Source: Fibrobacteria bacterium (GTDB lineage Bacteria; Fibrobacterota; Fibrobacteria; UBA11236). From it: DNA of 64,000 nt. A program made the translations under genes and the position numbers. The stretch's first letter is position 1, and every line of letters begins with the position of its first letter. Below are positions 4,203-48,843 of the stretch, piece by piece. The notes beneath the pieces were generated by a model, which saw nothing but the letters and a program-made list of their open reading frames with translations, did not search any database and had not been told where the DNA came from. The DNA lies in assembly GCA_050486505.1 (NCBI GenBank), contig JBJHDK010000002.1:1292-65291 (forward strand), read 5' to 3'.

Positions 4203-5633
4203 CTACTGCCTCTCCCATTCCATCGTCCCGTCCGGGTTGTCTTTCAGCACGAAGCCAGCGGCGCGGAACCGGTCCCTGATCGCGTCACTGCGCGCCCAGT
4301 CCTTGTTCTTGCGGGCTTCGGCGCGCTCCGCCAGAAGCGGGACGAGTTCGGCGGGCAACTCGACCGCGTCCTCCGTTTCGGCGGGCTCCGTCAGACGAAG
4401 TCCGAGCATGGTGTCGAACAGCGCCACCAGCCCCGCACGCTCGCCCTCGAGCAAGTCGGGATCCTTCAGCATGAGGTTCATGATGCCGAGTGCCTGGGGG
4501 AAGTTCAGATCATCGCCGACCGCCTCCTCGAAACGGGCGCGCCACTCGAGTGCGCGGTCGGAGCGCACGGGGGCCGCCTTGCCGATGAACGGATCGGTAC
4601 GCTTGCGCAGGTTGCGCAGGGAATCGCGCGCGGTGTCCATGCCCTGGTAGCTGAAGTTCAGGTAATTGCGGTAGTGCGCCGTCAAGCAGAAGTAGCGGTA
4701 ATCCATGGCCGAGTAACCCTGCCTGATCAGCACATCGAGCGTGATGAACTCGCCGGAGGACTTGGACATTTTGCCCGCCCCCCCTTTGCACGTCTCGTCA
4801 GGCGCCTCGAGCAACCAGCCGCCGTGGATCCAGAAGCGCGCGAACGGCTTGCCGGTGGCGCACTCCGATTGCGCGATCTCGTTGGTGTGATGCACGCGGA
4901 TGTGGTCGGTGCCCCCGCAGTGGATGTCGATGGTCTCGCCCAGCAGCTTCATCGCCATCGCGGAGCATTCGACGTGCCATCCCGGAAACCCGCGGCCCCA
5001 CGGGGAGTCCCATTCCATCTGTCGTTGCGCGTCTTTGGGCGAAAACTTCCACAGCGCAAAGTCGGTGGGATTACGCTTCCCCTCCGCCATGGCGACGCGC
5101 GCCCCCGCCTGCATTCCCTCGAGGTCGAGCTTCGCGAAGTCGGCATAACGCGGAAACTTCGCTGTGTCGAAATACACGCCATCTTCGGGCACGACATAAG
5201 CGTAACCCTTCTCCTCGAGCTCGCGCACCAGTTCGATCTGCTCGGGAATGTGCCCCGTCGCCTTGGGCCAGGCGGTGGGCTCACGCAGGTTGAGCGCCTT
5301 CCAGTCCTTGAAGAAGGCCTGCGCATACTGTTCCGCGATGTCCCACACCGACTTGCCCTCGCGGCGGGCACCCTTCTCCATCTTGTCTTCGCCGGTGTCG
5401 GCGTCGGAGGTGAGGTGGCCAACGTCGGTGATGTTGACCACATGCTGTACGGTGTATCCGGCGTGCTCGAGGGCGCGGCGCAACAGGTCCTCGAAGACGT
5501 AGGTGCGCAGGTTGCCGATGTGGGCGAAGTGGTACACCGTCGGGCCGCAGCAGTACATCTTCACGATCCCGGGCGTGATGGGTTCGAAGGGCTGCTTGGC
5601 ACGGGCGGCGGTATTGTAAAGATGGAGCTGCAT
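4203..5633 (-). CDS. cysS: Cysteine--tRNA ligase
   Basis: HIGN and KMSKS class-I aaRS motifs; full-length CysRS. Confidence 0.95.
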   Translation of the reverse strand: MQLHLYNTAARAKQPFEPITPGIVKMYCCGPTVYHFAHIGNLRTYVFEDLLRRALEHAGYTVQHVVNITDVGHLTSDADTGEDKMEKGARREGKSVWDIAEQYAQAFFKDWKALNLREPTAWPKATGHIPEQIELVRELEEKGYAYVVPEDGVYFDTAKFPRYADFAKLDLEGMQAGARVAMAEGKRNPTDFALWKFSPKDAQRQMEWDSPWGRGFPGWHVECSAMAMKLLGETIDIHCGGTDHIRVHHTNEIAQSECATGKPFARFWIHGGWLLEAPDETCKGGAGKMSKSSGEFITLDVLIRQGYSAMDYRYFCLTAHYRNYLNFSYQGMDTARDSLRNLRKRTDPFIGKAAPVRSDRALEWRARFEEAVGDDLNFPQALGIMNLMLKDPDLLEGERAGLVALFDTMLGLRLTEPAETEDAVELPAELVPLLAERAEARKNKDWARSDAIRDRFRAAGFVLKDNPDGTMEWERQ

Positions 5634-10300: not shown

Positions 10301-10668
10301 TGTTCTGGGAAGCCGGGCGGGCATGGAATGGATCGATGTGGGATGCTGAGTTGTTCTCCCCCTCGGCGTGGACGCCGGAGCGTCGGGCTGACGGCTGGTA
10401 CCAAAGCGTGGGCGGAGGCCTCAAGCTGAACGCGCGCATCTACCACAACTATCCTTTTCTCGTGTACTTTCAGGCCGCGCGCGCGCTTTCGGGCCTACCC
10501 GACGGCGAAGGCGGATTCATCGCCTTGGACAACGTGCGCGTCGCCGGTTTCGAAACTCCCGCCAGCCGCATCGAGTTCGGCGTGAGCTTCGGGCTCTACA
10601 GCGGCCTGCTCACCCGCAGAAGCGAGCGCCACCCCCTGAATCCGGAGTCGCCCTTTGCCAGGCGCTAG
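7327..10668 (+). CDS. Secreted multidomain protein: N-terminal HExxH zinc-metallopeptidase-like domain, TolB/PD40-type beta-propeller repeats, C-terminal beta-rich Omp85-like region
   Basis: Signal peptide MTRHALCALAALFLLHGAHA from the internal Met of track ORF 7249..10668; HEFAHL...FAEGVAQYE motifs; repeats of the PDG(E/T)RIAF / SPDGERI(L/A) type; C-terminal alternating hydrophobic strands (GFAFTYY, LKLNARIYHNYPFLVYF, RIEFGVSFGLY). Confidence 0.8.
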   Translation: MTRHALCALAALFLLHGAHAGGFTLNRNAAHIDWRTAETEHFRFHYPRELEDVAGHIAGIAEEVAADKLARYAITLPNKVEFVVRDDIFSNGWANALQNTMTVWATDWDFPVRGTHNWIRDVVTHEFAHLVSIQSGSKLPSFLQGVVAGFEGYYNAPLQPRLATIFPFTHQPAWFAEGVAQYESELSGYDAWDSHRDMLLRISALENRLLPIERMSVFAGNALEYELGPYTQGFALTRFIAERYGDEAVLRLWAENARIHRQTMSGSMQRVLGKSDREVFREWRSEITARYTDQVRDLGELHQGQKLTSKGFYNYYPRWDAKGEGVFFVSNAGRDDFRATLGRVALEDTVKPEEERFEPVPGIRGFFDVAADDSTFLYASARERDRNGVHTLDIYQRNLRRDARFFERQDPTEKRFTRDLNAVHPNYAPDGTRIAFVYAEASNFFLAVAPVPEGDSLDAEDVRTLFPPPELLERRFGFNIYTPKFSPDGERILFSWFDGAERNIGIINADGSGFQGLVTGPEDARDPEWDPDGNSFYYASDKTGIFNLYRFDLTTGDTEPVTNVLGGAFLPSVSPDGERIAYVNYDRDGFSIYVLHDPVRVNVPAASHLEQRHATSAPPALEFAGLGRSYTPVPTRGILTPILFGQQTLAATREKGVIPEQGVTKWLAGASGYLTDPVLKNELSAVLLAEIGNGFAYFGRHSALVSPDKESQLYVDITNNATPVTLQASFFRGNLNTFDTVTVRDQPQPGGGVADEQLRQDYALTFRSVEAAAAYNLFDAQAVGTWDRPSHVRMALGYDWNDFNFYDLGGGQGFAFTYYKSLRLTTSLNLHGSGYSDKGLVAPRGFAAILAHTFRESDLFGCDSDYISDCFDFEGGALRPRYQTYRFHELDAGATYGRAMPWSRNASIVASVFASSLADWSLTRSELAADTLDRFFERGLFLRGYPFLRDIESLAFGGENSITLSLDLNQPLIADIYRNYWTVFVEDLYLHLFWEAGRAWNGSMWDAELFSPSAWTPERRADGWYQSVGGGLKLNARIYHNYPFLVYFQAARALSGLPDGEGGFIALDNVRVAGFETPASRIEFGVSFGLYSGLLTRRSERHPLNPESPFARR

Positions 10669-11596
10669 GCGCAAGCGGGTCGCCCCGGCGTCGCCGCAAC
10701 CCCCGGGTTATGCGTACGTCAACGGTCGCATCACGCGCGCGGACCGCGCCGCCATCTCCGTCTTCGACCGCGGCCTCGTCCTGGGCGACGGGCTCTTCGA
10801 AACACTGCGGGCGCATCACGGAGTTCCGGAGTTCCTCGACCTGCATTACCGGCGCCTCGTGAAATCAGCGCGCCGCTTGCGCATCCGCGTGCCCGTGACG
10901 GAGACGGAGCTGCGCGACATCATCGCGACGCTGTGTCGCAAAAGCCGGATGTACGACGCCGCGGTCCGCATCACCCTGACGCGCGGCCGCTATTTCGGCG
11001 GCCTCGCCATCGACCCCGAGGTTCCCCCATCGCTCATCGTCGTGGTGTTGCCGGTGCAACCGCTTCCCACCGACATCCTCGCACGCGGGGTGAAAGTGGC
11101 GGTGTCCTCGATCAACAAAACAGCCGCATCGGGCCTCGACCCGCGCATCAAGTCGATCAACTATCTGGCCAACATCTTCGCCAAGGCCGAAGGCGACCGC
11201 AAGGGGTGCTACGAGGCGATTCTGCTCGGCCCGCGCGGCGAGATCGCCGAATTGTCCACCTCAAGTTTCTTCTGCGTGCTCAAGGGCGTGGTCGTCACGC
11301 CCCCCATCGACACCGGCATCCTGCCCGGCATCACCCGCCAGGTGCTGCTGCGCGAGATGAAGCGGCACCGTATCCCCTTCCGCGAGGCGGAAGTGTTTCC
11401 CAAGGACGTGGAGAAGATGTCGGAAGCGTTCCTGTGTTCCTCGGTGCGCGGCCCGGTGCCGATCGCGCGCATCGACGGAAAGAAGGTGGGAACGGGCAAG
11501 CCGGGCTCGATTTTCGCGCGACTCAGGGATCTGTATCAGGATGCGTGCGAGAGGGAGTTGCGAGTCGCGAGTTACGAGTTACGAGTTACGAAGTAA
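10655..11596 (+). CDS. Class IV (fold-type IV) aminotransferase: aminodeoxychorismate lyase / branched-chain or D-amino-acid aminotransferase family
   Basis: Family-typical N-terminus YAYVNGRI...; length about 300 aa; the last ~13 codons (ELRVASYELRVTK) and the stop lie inside the heptamer repeat arm. Confidence 0.8.
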   Translation: MPGARRKRVAPASPQPPGYAYVNGRITRADRAAISVFDRGLVLGDGLFETLRAHHGVPEFLDLHYRRLVKSARRLRIRVPVTETELRDIIATLCRKSRMYDAAVRITLTRGRYFGGLAIDPEVPPSLIVVVLPVQPLPTDILARGVKVAVSSINKTAASGLDPRIKSINYLANIFAKAEGDRKGCYEAILLGPRGEIAELSTSSFFCVLKGVVVTPPIDTGILPGITRQVLLREMKRHRIPFREAEVFPKDVEKMSEAFLCSSVRGPVPIARIDGKKVGTGKPGSIFARLRDLYQDACERELRVASYELRVTK

Positions 11597-11770
11597 AAGG
11601 CGATGCATCGGGATCGCTTGCTCCATGCCTGAAGGCATCACGCCCTTCCTGCTCCTCTGCTTGAATGCTGCATCTTTTCGTCATTCATGAAATTCTGCAC
11701 GCCACCCACAAGATCCCTGTAGAGCGGTTTCATTCGTAACTCGTAATTCGTAACTCGTAATTCTCAACTC
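11555..11770. repeat. Heptamer-repeat inverted-repeat element, copy A: 5 GAGTYRC units (11555-11589), 146-bp unique core, 5 GTAAYTC units (11736-11770)
   Basis: Left arm GAGTTGC GAGTCGC GAGTTAC GAGTTAC GAGTTAC; right arm GTAACTC GTAATTC GTAACTC GTAATTC TCAACTC is its inverted complement; sits between convergent genes and supplies both their stops. Confidence 0.8.
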
Positions 11771-12513
11771 CTTTTCGCTTCCACCACCCAGTCCCACGGC
11801 CACGGCTCCTTCATCCAGCGCGGCGGGTCGGGAAACTCCGTGTCCCAGCCGTACTCCACCTTCTCCACGGAATCGACCGTGAAGCCGGAGGAGCCGAGCA
11901 AGACGCGTAGTTCCTCCCGCAGATAGTGCTTCGTGCGCACGCCGTCGATCGCGAGGATTCCGCCCAGCGCATCGCGGCCCCCGGATCCGGACAACGTTGT
12001 CGGCAAGGGGATGCCGCGCTTCGCCCGGGAACGGCGCATCCACTCCGTGCGACGCGCGTGCGCGAACAGCGAGGATTCAAGTGAGGGGACGAGCATCAAT
12101 AATGTGCCGCCCTTGCGCGTCGCGCGTGCGAGGCGCCGCAGGACGCGCTCCCGTGTCGCGGCTGAAGGCATGATGAGCACGTTCGCGCAAAGGGTAAAGT
12201 CCGCCTCGCCGACTCCGGCATCCGGGTCGGACAAGTCCTCGCGCAGAAAGGAAACGTTCTTCAGGTCCGCATGAAGCGCGCGCGCTCGGCGCACGCATTC
12301 TCCGGACAGGTCGGACGCCCACACCGTGCCGAAGCCGCTGGACAGCAGCGGGAGGTATTTCCCCACCCCGCAGCCGAAATCGAACGCAGTCGCCCGTCGA
12401 TTCGCGTGCCGCCGGATGCGCTTCAGCAGGACGCCGTTCCGGTCTCCCGCCAGAGAGTCGAAAATCTCCCCGTCATAATCCCTCGCCACGGTCTCCCAAT
12501 ACTTCCGGTCCAT
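11764..12513 (-). CDS. Class I SAM-dependent methyltransferase
   Basis: FDFGCGVGKY glycine-rich SAM motif; 249 aa; stop TGA lies within the repeat arm. Confidence 0.8.
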   Translation of the reverse strand: MDRKYWETVARDYDGEIFDSLAGDRNGVLLKRIRRHANRRATAFDFGCGVGKYLPLLSSGFGTVWASDLSGECVRRARALHADLKNVSFLREDLSDPDAGVGEADFTLCANVLIMPSAATRERVLRRLARATRKGGTLLMLVPSLESSLFAHARRTEWMRRSRAKRGIPLPTTLSGSGGRDALGGILAIDGVRTKHYLREELRVLLGSSGFTVDSVEKVEYGWDTEFPDPPRWMKEPWPWDWVVEAKRS

Positions 12514-14287: not shown

Positions 14288-14398
14288 GCCGGAAAGCATG
14301 GGGAACCCTGCCGGTTCCCCCTCCGTCGGGGTTTTCTTCACGGGGAACCCCCGAATCCCCCTGAAATTCTACCTTTGCCCGCTCTTCGGGCACCAGTA

Positions 14399-14475
14399 GC
14401 TCAGCTGGATAGAGCGTCGCCCTCCGAAGGCGAAGGTCACAGGTTCGACTCCTGTCTGGTGTACCACCTCACCCA
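14399..14475 (+). tRNA. tRNA-Arg (anticodon CCG)
   Basis: Folds by hand into a cloverleaf: acceptor GCACCAG/CTGGTGT, D-arm GCTC-AGCTGGATA-GAGC, anticodon loop CTCCGAA, T-arm ACAGG-TTCGACT-CCTGT, 3' ACCA. Confidence 0.85.
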
Positions 14476-18719: not shown

Positions 18720-18804
18720 ATCGCCCGCCCTCGTCCCGAAGAGCAGCGCGTGAACCCGCAGGTGAGTCTTCTGGCTTGCGGCGGGAACCCCTGTTGGGGG
18801 GATC

Positions 18805-18985
18805 CGGAAGTCTTCCGCCTTCCCGCCCGGCGCCCCGTTCCCCGAAGGGGGGGGATGGCCTGGACAGTGGCTGGCGCGCGCAGTTGCGGGCGCCGGGAAA
18901 ACATCAACCGCTTACAGCGACGAGCTCGCTCCCGATTCGCACGGGATTCCTCGTTATGCCCTTCCGAACCGTTCGGAGGGCTCCC
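18805..18985 (-). ncRNA. Cobalamin (adenosylcobalamin) riboswitch
   Basis: The minus strand reads ...AGGAATCCCGTGCGAATCGGGAGC...GCTGTAAGCGG...GCAACTG...GCCACTG...GGGAAGGC. This matches E. coli btuB leader blocks (AGGGAAUCCAGUGCGAAUCUGGAGCUGAC...GCAGCGGUAAGG) plus the B12 box GCCACTG and GGGAAGGC. Sits upstream of a TonB receptor. Confidence 0.8.
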
Positions 18986-19107
18986 TGTGAGCGAATGGAA
19001 TAGTAGTCAATGCGGATAGCGGGGCGTCAAACGGGCGACCCCACGGGTCGCCCGTACATGAATCGATGCCGAAGGAATGTAGGGCCGAGCCGCTGGCTCG
19101 CCCGAAA

Positions 19108-28677: not shown

Positions 28678-28723
28678 ACCCGAAAACCCTGACGCTCCGA
28701 ACGCATTCCCCCACCCCCACCTC

Positions 28724-28772
28724 CCAACTCCCAACTCCCAACTCCCAACTCATAACTCGTAACTCGTAACTC
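28724..28772. repeat. Heptamer tandem repeat, half-element B: 4x CCAACTC, 1x ATAACTC, 2x GTAACTC
   Basis: Seven contiguous 7-nt units ending 3 nt before the ATG at 28776; same unit family as the inverted arms at 11555-11770 and 48691-48843; no inverted partner found nearby. Confidence 0.75.
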
Positions 28773-44296: not shown

Positions 44297-45448
44297 GTGA
44301 CCCGCACCGCCTTAAACCCGAACCTGACGCGCAGATGTCTGCCAGGACTGCTTGCCCTTGCAATCTCTCCCCTGTTGCGCGCATTGCTCCTGCCACTGCG
44401 CCGCCGCAGCCGTGAGGATGCTCCCGTTACCGTCTTCGCCAGCTACATGGTCGGCGACCTGTTCATGGCCTTGCCGGCGCTGAAGCGCATCGCGGCCGCG
44501 ATCCCGGTGCGCGTACTCTGCCGCGCAGACTGCGTGAGCTTCCTTGAACGCGAAGGCATCCCTGCGGCGCCCTTCACCAACAGCTTCCGGATCCGCCCCA
44601 CCGTTTCAACCTTCCTCGAAACCTGGCGTTCCGCATGGAGCCTCCGCGGCCACCTTGACGGCATCGCGCTGGACCTCGACGCGGATCCCCGCACGGCATT
44701 CTGGTTGCGCATTGCCGGAGTCGCGCGCGTCGTTTCCTACCGCCGCGCCTACGGAATCCTGTTCGATGATGCGTTCGCCCTGCCTTCCGGCGCCGTGCAC
44801 CAAGCCGACCGCGACATGGCGGTGGTGGAGGAGTTCTTGCGGAGGCACGTCCTGAACGGGAGACGGGCGACGGCAGACGGGAGAGCTCCCAGTATGGGCG
44901 ACCTTCCCGGCCTTCGCCGGGGTGACGGGGTCGCCCTTACGGAGAGAGTGTATCACCCCCCTCCCCCGTCTCCCGCCTGGCTCCTCTCAGTCTGGACGCG
45001 CAAGCCCGCAAAAAACTGGCCGCTCCCGAGCTGGGAGGCATTCATGCAACGCCTTCAGGAAAAGGGGGTTCCCTTCGCGGTCATCGACGCCCCCGATGGA
45101 GACGCGGAGTTCCGGGCCTTCCGGGAGCGGTGGAACGGGCGGGTCGACTTTGCACGCGGAAGCCTCGTCGAAATCGCGGACAGAGTCCGCTCCTCCGCGG
45201 GCGTGATCGCCACCGACAACTTCCTCGGCCACATGGCCGGGTATTACGGGAAACCCGTCCTGTGGATCAACGTCTGCTCGCCCGCGGAACAGGTGGAACC
45301 GCGTGGCCCCCGAACAGTGCGCGTGCAGGCGAAGGATCCGCGACAAGCGAAGGAGCTGGATTCCGAAACGGTGTGGCGAACCTTCGAGGATCTTCGCGCA
45401 GGCGCACCTGCGGCGGCTTCAACGTCTTCCGCTACTCGGGCAAGCTGA
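44297..45448 (+). CDS. Glycosyltransferase family 9 (heptosyltransferase-like)
   Basis: GT9-type architecture (…GDLFMALPALKRI…, C-terminal …TDNFLGHMAGYYGKPVL). Confidence 0.7.
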   Translation: MTRTALNPNLTRRCLPGLLALAISPLLRALLLPLRRRSREDAPVTVFASYMVGDLFMALPALKRIAAAIPVRVLCRADCVSFLEREGIPAAPFTNSFRIRPTVSTFLETWRSAWSLRGHLDGIALDLDADPRTAFWLRIAGVARVVSYRRAYGILFDDAFALPSGAVHQADRDMAVVEEFLRRHVLNGRRATADGRAPSMGDLPGLRRGDGVALTERVYHPPPPSPAWLLSVWTRKPAKNWPLPSWEAFMQRLQEKGVPFAVIDAPDGDAEFRAFRERWNGRVDFARGSLVEIADRVRSSAGVIATDNFLGHMAGYYGKPVLWINVCSPAEQVEPRGPRTVRVQAKDPRQAKELDSETVWRTFEDLRAGAPAAASTSSATRAS

Positions 45449-47803: not shown

Positions 47804-48228
47804 AGGAAAAAAACAGAACCCGCCGCCCCTTCAGGACGACGGGTTCGTGGGGCCGGAAGCACGGGCTTCCGGCCCCGGTTCAGGCGCACTCCCAGGCCCC
47901 CGCCCGGTTGCGCGCCTCCTCTCCCCCTTCGATCCTGTCTGCAAGAAAACCGGACACCCGGGGACGGTCGGTAATTTCACGTGACGAATGTACCGTGGTG
48001 CTCCAGACGTTGCAACATCATTTTGATGGCAAGATAACAATCAACGTTCATTTTATGGCGATTATTGGATTTAAATGCAGTTATTTCTCCTTTTCATATC
48101 GTTTTGGATTCGATTATTCGATAACATTATGCGGTCGACAAGTCCTTGTGCCCGCTTTTTCTGCGGAATTGCCGGGGATGCGGAAAACGGCTAGATAGTT
48201 CGAACACCCGAAACTCAAGGAGTAACCC

Positions 48229-48696
48229 ATGGAAATGGATATCGGATTGGCCAAAAAAGACCGCCAAAAGATTGCAACGGGGCTGTCGCGCGTTCTGGCG
48301 GACAGCTATACCCTCTATCTCAAAACGCACAATTTCCATTGGAATGTGACCGGGCCGATGTTCCAGACTCTCCATCTGATGTTCGAGACGCATTATACCG
48401 AACTTGCCGTGGCGGTGGACGACATCGCGGAGCGCATTCGCGCCTTGGGGCACCCCGCACCCGGAACCTACAAGGCGTTCGAAAAACTCTCTTCGATTCC
48501 GATGGAGGACGGCGTACCGAAGGCGACTGACATGATCCGCTCGCTGGTCAAGGGCCACGAGGCTGTGGCAAAAACCGCCCGCACCGCCTTCGTTGACGCG
48601 GATGCCGCTGGCGACGAGCCCACGGCCGACCTCCTGACCCAACGCATGCAGGTGCATGAGAAGACCGCGTGGATGCTCCGCAGCCTGCTGGAATAA
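48229..48696 (+). CDS. dps: DNA starvation/stationary phase protection protein Dps
   Basis: Ferritin-like ferroxidase residues (HWNVTG...HLMFE); the stop TAA lies inside the first repeat unit. Confidence 0.95.
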   Translation: MEMDIGLAKKDRQKIATGLSRVLADSYTLYLKTHNFHWNVTGPMFQTLHLMFETHYTELAVAVDDIAERIRALGHPAPGTYKAFEKLSSIPMEDGVPKATDMIRSLVKGHEAVAKTARTAFVDADAAGDEPTADLLTQRMQVHEKTAWMLRSLLE

Positions 48697-48843
48697 TTAC
48701 GAATTAAGAATTACGAATTTAACGCAGATGTCGCTGCCGCATGAAGAGTCCGTGCGCCATGCAAACGTGAATCGCCGAAGTCCGAGTTCAAGACGCCGCC
48801 CTTCATTCGTAATTCGTAATTCGTAATTCTTAATTCTTATCGC
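48691..48843. repeat. Heptamer-repeat inverted-repeat element, copy C: arms TAATTAC GAATTAA GAATTAC GAATTTA (48694-48721) and GTAATTC x3 TTAATTC TTATCGC (48809-48843), 87-bp core
   Basis: Arms are inverted complements; the dps stop (48694-96) and the hldE stop (48837-39) each fall inside an arm. Confidence 0.8.

Follow-up and report, generated by a model that had tools for sequence, protein, structure and literature searches.

Inverted heptamer arrays at gene ends of a Fibrobacterota genome as probable gene-less relatives of elements that carry 23S rRNA intervening sequence protein genes

Two hairpin elements with inverted arrays of tandem 7-nt units as arms are found in the window analysed here, a 64,000-nt stretch of contig JBJHDK010000002.1 from a Fibrobacterota metagenome-assembled genome (MAG) of 63% G+C (GCA_050486505.1). 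Element 1 lies between convergent aminotransferase and methyltransferase genes, element 2 between a Dps/ferritin-like and an HldE-like gene. We propose, with a probability of about 0.6, that both are gene-less members of a widespread palindromic class whose arms are such heptamer arrays. Full-length members of the class are ~450 nt long and hold between their arms a single small gene, whose product is a 'four helix bundle' protein (PF05635/TIGR02436) of the family that 23S rRNA intervening sequences (IVSs) encode, a family related to Avd, the accessory protein of diversity-generating retroelements; the protein is called IVP below, after the Pfam name 23S_rRNA_IVP. Arms and gene are inherited, gained or lost as one unit at gene boundaries, and within an element the units of both arms vary in concert. 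The window elements have their unit, its polarity and their position in common with gene-carrying elements, one of which occupies the site orthologous to element 1 in a relative (locus L122).

Element 1. By reading, five heptamers are seen on the left at 11555-11589 (GAGTTGC GAGTCGC GAGTTAC GAGTTAC GAGTTAC) and five on the right at 11736-11770 (GTAACTC GTAATTC GTAACTC GTAATTC TCAACTC), the two blocks being separated by 146 nt. Repeat finding lengthens the arms (Table 1) to 51 nt each, 130 nt apart and 82% complementary. Tandem Repeats Finder assigns period 7 to both arrays, with 5.3 copies at 11555-11591, and the other window arrays, at 3.9-4.6 copies, likewise consist of at least three head-to-tail 7-nt units. 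Aligned by their register, both arms consist of seven units that follow in identical order: GCGAGAG GGAGTTG CGAGTCG CGAGTTA CGAGTTA CGAGTTA CGAAGTA in the left arm, and GCGAAAA GGAGTTG AGAATTA CGAGTTA CGAATTA CGAGTTA CGAATGA in the reverse complement of the right. The Aminotran_4 open reading frame (ORF; 10655-11596, + strand) traverses the entire left arm, ends in ...ACERELRVASYELRVTK* and takes its TAA at 11594-11596, and the S-adenosylmethionine-dependent methyltransferase ORF (11764-12513, - strand) finds its TGA stop in the right arm's fifth, outermost unit, which is degenerate. The predicted RNA fold is a single long stem of -107.5 kcal/mol (z -8.8) on the + strand, and the - strand gives -97.6 kcal/mol (z -5.9). 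A first-pass annotation, made from the letters and a list of ORFs, had claimed inverted complementary arms, one very long stem-loop, and a gene-end position at which both genes draw C-terminal codons and stops from the repeats; these values bear it out on each point. A Logan contig from an independent short-read assembly of the same sequence (SRR31311414_306617, L001) terminates within the right arm.

The outermost 14 nt of the two arms (11547-11560 and 11765-11778) are identical at 12/14 positions (GCGAGAGGGAGTTG vs GCGAAAAGGAGTTG). In the aminotransferase, the left copy codes for the conserved C-E-R-E-L, and the right copy codes for the non-conserved methyltransferase tail AKRS*. Seven of these bases form a heptamer-like unit, and the remaining 5-of-7 match has, on a rough estimate, p ~0.01. 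The 12/14 match hints that one arm of element 1 may have been copied from the other.

A position between convergent genes and very stable predicted stems would also suit an element selected primarily as a bidirectional transcription terminator, and hairpins of the cyanobacterial STRRs (short tandemly repeated repetitive elements) have been suggested to affect transcript stability (PMC2670836). We consider this improbable for the present elements: a terminator consensus scan makes no call at the arms, though a canonical terminator is present at 47846-47816; the stem is followed by no T-run on the minus strand; and arrays of the GARTTAC family also stand upstream of start codons and of tRNA genes. 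Core 1 has a single small terminator-like hairpin (minus strand, 11617-11600), which is not above chance.

Element 2. The architecture is that of element 1, with 28-nt arms that are 89-95% complementary, one long predicted stem (z -3.3 and -3.8 on its two strands) and outermost arm units that hold the stop codons of both flanking genes. A third site is an unpaired array that stops 3 nt short of the ATG (28776) of a Na/Pi cotransporter gene and has no inverted partner near it. The motif GARTTACGARTTAC occurs 11 times in the window at up to one mismatch, against 0.02 expected and with none of 100 shuffles reaching 11. Element 2 and the single array also uphold the first-pass annotation's claim of a family within the window. 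Its statement that the arrays are neither CRISPR arrays nor classical repetitive extragenic palindromes (REPs) agrees with what is found, namely contiguous 7-nt units in two inverted blocks, instead of direct repeats of 23-50 nt with unique spacers of like size between them, and a tandem array in place of a fixed palindrome. In all, the 64 kb hold three GARTTAC-family sites and one pair of ACGGGAG arrays, at intergenic or gene-boundary places.

The same annotation had compared the element to a miniature inverted-repeat transposable element (MITE) or a REPIN (a REP doublet forming a hairpin). Mobilisation in trans by a transposase or a REP-associated tyrosine transposase (RAYT), as for a classical MITE or REPIN, would fit the inverted terminal arms, the intergenic site and the several copies found in the window; like MITEs, REPINs and the REP-containing bacterial interspersed mosaic elements (BIMEs) the window elements are short, repeated, palindromic and intergenic. 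REPs can stabilise upstream mRNA. The window elements differ in having no conserved interior and, by eye, no target-site duplication at their junctions; their arms are tandem arrays of variable length, arm length and unit differ among copies, and the cores are unrelated. The outer arm units moreover overlap conserved aminotransferase codons (ACERE-L). No transposase or RAYT partner was noticed by the window elements, without a search aimed at either; by IVP-type elements no transposase was noticed except for an unrelated ISL3 transposase that interrupts one. Mobilisation of this kind is thus very improbable, and what stands of the comparison is an apparent kinship with a larger, discrete insertion/deletion unit, one that carries a gene.

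Equally hard to credit is that the element exists for a small gene in its core, one for a structured RNA or for a protein. The fold z-scores are strong and both cores contain a 31-codon minus-strand ORF; the fold signal, however, stems from the arms, the two ORF products are unrelated, and the cores are conserved neither between copies nor between loci. Rfam 15, searched both at gathering thresholds and with permissive E-values, yields only an ordinary tRNA and cobalamin riboswitch in the window, the best local match having 20 bits against a gathering threshold of 34. The structured RNA offered by the first-pass annotation is accordingly not supported. The ORF of core 2 (48711-48806, minus strand) begins with ATGAAGGG, adjoining one arm, and has its end, ..NS*, within the other; on this weak likeness it is possibly what is left of an IVP gene. 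In both elements one arm is followed by ATGAAR, which was considered as a vestige of an IVP start and given little weight, because CGAATG is a common inner arm variant that gene-less palindromes of perfect symmetry also have.

Orthologous sites. Homologues of the window aminotransferase are found in Fibrobacteria or Fibrobacterota MAGs and usually end 2-4 residues beyond the conserved ...ACERE(V/I/L). The window protein runs on for ~11 additional repeat-coded residues. Two other homologues have repeat-coded tails (P0005, ...EVTNYELRVTSYELRMAGRF; P0040, ...EVTSYE). At L122, a Fibrobacteria MAG, the interval between the aminotransferase and methyltransferase genes holds inverted heptamer arrays with a gene between them (Table 1). 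This gene matches PF05635 with 90.6 bits as well as TIGR02436 ('four helix bundle protein'), and is apparently frameshifted near its start. In a second phylum, a Planctomycetota MAG (L112) has GARTTAC-family arms around a related IVP gene. Inverted arrays of other heptamers also bracket IVP genes: those of L071 have the unit GTTCACA, and in L045 a truncated gene stands between GGCAGGA and CCTCCTG arrays. Among more distant aminotransferase homologues, P0050, P0054, P0068, P0075, P0090, P0099 and P0103 have repetitive tails of different kinds (...DASSNRDTSSNRS, ...DASSASDDSSASDASSASG); in other Fibrobacterota the same gene end may thus adjoin different tandem repeats.

IVP genes sampled by protein. 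Metagenomes were scanned with an alignment of homologues of the L122 protein, repeats being ignored, which gave 80 IVP loci (including the near-duplicates L154/L158 and L202/L203). Period-7 arrays of at least 21 nt are present upstream in 48/80 loci, downstream in 42/80 and on both sides in 32/80. An inverted repeat across the flanks with a score of at least 14 is found in 56 of the 68 loci that have at least 250 nt on each side; no shuffle scores above 12.5, and the control with direct repeats gives 15. The density of period-7 arrays is 2.28/kb within 300 nt of the IVP gene and 0.13/kb elsewhere in the same contigs (18-fold), and at these 80 loci periods 5, 6 and 8-11 are not enriched near the gene. 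Units of the AATTACG family stand upstream and their reverse complement downstream, and variants are paired within an element (AATTAGG/CCTAATT, AATTAAG/CTTAATT, AAGTTAC/GTAACTT): in 20/32 loci the upstream unit recurs downstream as its exact reverse complement, against 7.5 expected, a count that none of 2000 shuffles reaches. The median arm-to-arm span is 452 nt.

The reading properties of the arms account for the ends of the genes next to them. Inward (GARTTAC)n is stop-free in all frames, and outward (GTAAYTC)n has a TAA in all three frames within 21 nt. Because the former is stop-free in any frame, converging host genes enter the arms and gain repeat-encoded tails and stops; because the latter has TAA in every frame, IVP genes end in IRNS*. 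More than 5000 homologues of the L122 protein were found, and most of those listed end in ...IGSIQKTIRNS*, in which IRNS* is ATT CGT AAT TCG TAA, that is, in-frame (ATTCGTA)n; several annotated N-termini begin with NYELRI, encoded by (AATTACG)n. Many of the contigs that encode these homologues are very short, and heptamer-armed elements seem to break assemblies.

Plasmid cassettes. A tblastn search of plasmids with the distant IVP of L071 gave 30 records, eleven of which were read (Table 1); the 8-nt unit of the Gemmatirosa plasmid is the sole departure from period 7 among the loci read. Among elements with the unit GGCAGAA, the IVPs from Stanieria, PCC 7120 and Fortiea are 67-80% identical, those of the AGCTAAA elements of Calothrix and Pseudanabaena 74%, and those of the GGAGATA and GGAGTCA elements 65%, with other pairs at 25-50%. 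At the level of sequence identity, the heptamer unit is therefore shown to track the relatedness of the enclosed IVP across hosts.

Two homologous Nostoc plasmids with flanks that are 91% identical supply empty and occupied sites, each of two elements being present in one plasmid and absent from the other. The geneA/geneB junction is TAGgttATG in pNsp_c and holds (AGGAGTC)n-IVP-(GACTCCT)n in pNPUN01, and the geneB/geneC junction is TAAgtttATG in pNPUN01 and holds (GGGAAAA)n-IVP-(TTTTCCC)n in pNsp_c. Arms and gene were therefore gained or lost jointly, exactly between a stop and a start codon. No obvious target duplication is seen on comparing these empty and occupied sites.

One of the plasmid loci lies in an rRNA gene. 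On plasmid AZO_p2 of Azospirillum lipoferum 4B (L216, 13801-15330), a 23S rRNA gene (Rfam LSU, 896 bits) has an IVP ORF in an intervening sequence, within a heptamer-periodic 36-nt terminal stem (fold z -8.3). Since the arms of this IVS are heptamer-periodic, classical rRNA IVSs belong to the same class. The IVP ORF is unannotated, the plasmid's feature table having no entry there.

Table 1. Features of the window, with positions in its own numbering, and heptamer arrays at loci in other genomes
Feature or locus	Positions	Strand	Description
Element 1	11547..11778		
Element 1, left arm	11547..11597	+	Encodes last ~16 aa and TAA of aminotransferase
Element 1, unique core	11598..11727	.	No detectable gene
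Element 1, right arm	11728..11778	-	Unit-by-unit reverse complement of left arm; last codons and TGA (11764-11766) of methyltransferase
Element 2	48692..48839		
Element 2, left arm	48692..48719	+	(AATTACG/AATTAAG)n; overlaps TAA (48694-48696) of Dps/ferritin-like gene
Element 2, unique core	48720..48804	.	31-codon minus-strand ORF
Element 2, right arm	48805..48839	-	(CGTAATT/CTTAATT)n; gives TAA (48837-48839) of HldE-like gene
Unpaired array	28716..28772	+	(CCCAACT)5, then CATAACT, then (CGTAACT)2
ACGGGAG pair	44857..44884 and 44959..44979		(ACGGGAG)n vs CCCCGTCTCCCG
Inverted repeat nested in ACGGGAG pair	44886..44946		
tRNA gene	14390..14463	+	
Cobalamin riboswitch	18744..19003	-	67.6 bits
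Canonical intrinsic terminator	47846..47816	-	14-bp G+C-rich stem and T-run
L122, Fibrobacteria MAG			Aminotransferase 76% identical; (AGTTACG)n at aminotransferase end, (CGTAACT)n at methyltransferase end, minus-strand gene between
L124			Short G+C-rich mini-hairpin, two AATTGCG units per arm
L123, L206, L207, L208			Array absent
L209, Nostoc sp. ATCC 53789			GGGAAAA, inverted
L210, Stanieria			GGCAGAA, inverted
L211, Calothrix			AGCTAAA, inverted
L212, PCC 7120			Downstream array only; ISL3 transposase upstream
L213, Anabaena sp. 90 (pANA02)			GGTGACA, inverted
L214, Picosynechococcus plasmid			GGAGATA, inverted
L215, Riemerella			AAGGTTC, inverted
L216, Azospirillum			AGAGGAC-type, inverted, within 23S rRNA
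L217, Gemmatirosa kalamazoonensis plasmid 1			8-nt unit, inverted, GGGCAGGA / CTCCTGCC
L218, Pseudanabaena (pPg_01)			AAAAGCT, direct arrays and an inverted copy farther upstream
L219, N. punctiforme			CAGGAGT, inverted

Three of the plasmid loci (L213, L218 and L214) are heptamer-armed IVP cassettes inside CRISPR-Cas operons, two unrelated cassettes lying between cas6 and cas4 and one between cas10 and cmr3. In a large clustering study (PMC10910872), '23S rRNA IVP' is listed as a CRISPR-associated family, and IVP cassettes in Cas operons may explain that listing.

Spread of the arrays. A genome collection was scanned with GARTTACGARTTACGARTTAC. The counts that follow cover at least 120 matches, a sample of the taxonomic spread, with gene context assessed from long ORFs only. 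Among the matches listed are Nostocales, where (GAATTAC)n is common, and other cyanobacteria, Bacteroidota, Ignavibacteria, Acidobacteriota, Chloroflexota, Planctomycetota, Akkermansia, Gemmatimonadales and a small number of further groups. In this cross-genome sample 90/122 arrays are found at gene boundaries, compared with 27/122 random positions. A count of arrays at gene ends across genomes, as the first-pass annotation had suggested, thus supports the gene-boundary position, without a fixed orientation to genes: a rule that single arrays turn their stop-free strand towards the adjacent gene was tried and rejected (in vs out, 31:34 at gene ends and 26:37 at gene starts). Pairs of arrays up to 600 nt apart have a polarity of their own, 19 being (GARTTAC)n...(GTAAYTC)n and three the opposite among the matches listed together with the window and L122. 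In this same set, the only two wide-gap pairs (460 and 556 nt), those of L122 and L112, both enclose an IVP gene.

A simpler origin, with no link to a gene, would be a 3'-end or terminator hairpin that grew in place by 7-nt slippage and into which, as an already existing hairpin, IVP genes were inserted. The short G+C-rich hairpin that L124 has at the same site, with just two heptamers per arm, could be such a beginning; single arrays are far more numerous than IVP-linked ones among the matches listed; many gene-less pairs are near-perfect long palindromes whose cores prolong the stem (L084, L113); and heptamers are over-represented in many bacteria, for which polymerase slippage has been proposed (PMC4692102). 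Slippage alone, however, leaves unexplained why a common unit is found in many phyla, why pairs have a 19:3 polarity, why the unit follows IVP relatedness across hosts, and why arms and gene come and go jointly at clean stop/start junctions. We regard it as rather unlikely.

Under the proposal that the window elements are gene-less members of an IVP-carrying class, the loci suggest a decay series, from intact genes (L071, L209 and others) through frameshifted (L122, L112) and truncated ones (L045) to gene-less pairs (the window elements, L010, L026, L084 and L113). The window copies would derive from a gene-carrying element like that at L122 by loss of the interior, after which array length would have been altered by 7-nt slippage and arm complementarity maintained by selection or by arm-to-arm copying. 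By analogy with IVSs, read-through transcripts would form a stem, ~50 bp long in element 1 and ~28 bp in element 2, which is likely a substrate for RNase III or a barrier to 3'-exonucleases. Probably the element is selfish or neutral, and not a dedicated regulator.

Several results weigh against this proposal. The window cores contain no IVP remnant that hmmsearch --max could find, the best hit (E = 0.28) being a repeat-coded peptide, and a profile search found no IVP signal in the entire window; arms enclose an IVP gene in L122 and L112, not here. Nor did blastn match the cores to each other, to the interiors of L122 and L112, to any fetched locus or to the remainder of the window. That the elements descend from one with a gene is therefore deduced from position and shared arms only. 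IVP genes number four in the ~120 array-selected loci among the matches listed, where most arrays are single with no IVP nearby, and arrays can exist and spread without an IVP gene. The idea of an IVP gene beside each (GARTTAC)n array was rejected on this count, from which it follows that the dependence goes from gene to arrays and not from arrays to gene. The arms show no strand asymmetry of G·U over A·C (67 vs 78), and a role at the RNA level is not demonstrated by them. We know of no insertion mechanism, target duplication or mobility enzyme for the class.

The window has a further inverted pair made of a different heptamer, ACGGGAG, with arms of 17 nt that are 88% complementary and a second inverted repeat nested between them (Table 1). 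As it occurs alongside the GARTTAC arrays, more than one heptamer family is present in this genome. In a Caldilineales MAG (L029, 1-200), (CGTAACT)3-4 and a conserved ~36-nt spacer (GGAGTGGGGGAGAGGTGTGTGCAGGGATGCGGA) make up a ~64-nt higher-order tandem repeat that is superficially like a CRISPR array. In Nostoc, (AATTACG)n arrays at L006 (564-645), L107 (~4260-4330) and L115 (~5100-5160) are broken by inserts of ~25-31 nt, e.g. TTAGCGCAGCAGTAGCGAGTCCGCAACCGTC. Small dispersed repeats nested in heptamer arrays of Nostoc punctiforme were reportedly described by Elhai in 2008, and the inserts look similar.

Among known systems, short gene-less IVSs are familiar from rRNA. The closest likeness is to the 23S IVSs of Leptospira, Coxiella and Brucella, of which those with an S23p ORF are regarded as selfish elements whose origin is not known (PMC4990558). 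That of Coxiella, a selfish element, measures 428 nt and has an S23p ORF and a 28-bp terminal stem that is cut by RNase III (PMC4990558). The elements described here have the same complementary termini and long stem around a loop; full elements are of similar size (~450 nt), full-length relatives carry the same gene family, and the arms of the Azospirillum 23S IVS are heptamer-periodic. The window elements differ from these IVSs in lying between protein-coding genes rather than in a 23S rRNA helix (the Rfam search found no rRNA in the window), in an ORF that was lost or never present, and in arms that overlap host coding sequence.

The heptamer hairpins themselves have precedents that the first-pass annotation missed. 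Cyanobacterial STRRs are heptamer tandem repeats, including hairpin-forming ones at hupS-hupL and upstream of hoxW (PMC2670836), and the title of Vioque 1997, as cited in PMC2858038, places one inside an RNase P RNA gene. Like the window arrays they are tandem 7-nt units, intergenic, often hairpin-capable and of unexplained function; the difference is in the host, here a Fibrobacterota of 63% G+C. Xanthomonas genomes have 70-75 convergent inverted pairs of GGGAATC arrays each (Rehm et al. 2015, PMC4692102), and by the same paper's account no one has explained heptameric repeats in detail. These too are paired inverted intergenic arrays, conserved in position between species, variable in length and in some cases between convergent genes; they differ in a G-rich unit that was studied as a G-quadruplex former, and in having no enclosed gene reported. 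Xanthomonas does encode an S23p homologue (PMC4990558). Seen against these systems, the window element is an IVS-like and STRR-like hairpin in Fibrobacterota, outside rRNA and without a gene. In a literature search of limited coverage we found no description of a heptamer-repeat make-up of IVS stems or of a link between STRRs and PF05635 genes, and no paper that links heptamer arrays with the IVP family; the coupling of the two appears to be undescribed.

A broader possibility, which we put forward tentatively and hold to be more doubtful than probable, is that the heptamer repeats of STRR, Xanthomonas and Bacteroidota type are all cis-elements of one widespread class of tiny selfish elements. 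Its only gene would be IVP/S23p, whose product would recognise or help to copy its own arm units, perhaps through an RNA hairpin intermediate and a host polymerase or reverse transcriptase, and gene-less arrays would be non-autonomous derivatives or footprints. If true, this would explain both the over-representation of heptamers and the role of the orphan IVP family.

The elements have practical effects on the genomes that hold them: host C-termini and stop codons are rewritten, operons are split and, it seems, short-read assemblies are broken. They also bring together two puzzles of some 30 years' standing, the excess of 7-nt repeats in cyanobacteria, Xanthomonas and other bacteria, and the purpose of the S23p/IVP proteins and their rRNA IVSs. 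The evidence here is that the two are physically and evolutionarily coupled and, if the coupling holds genome-wide, both would become directly testable.

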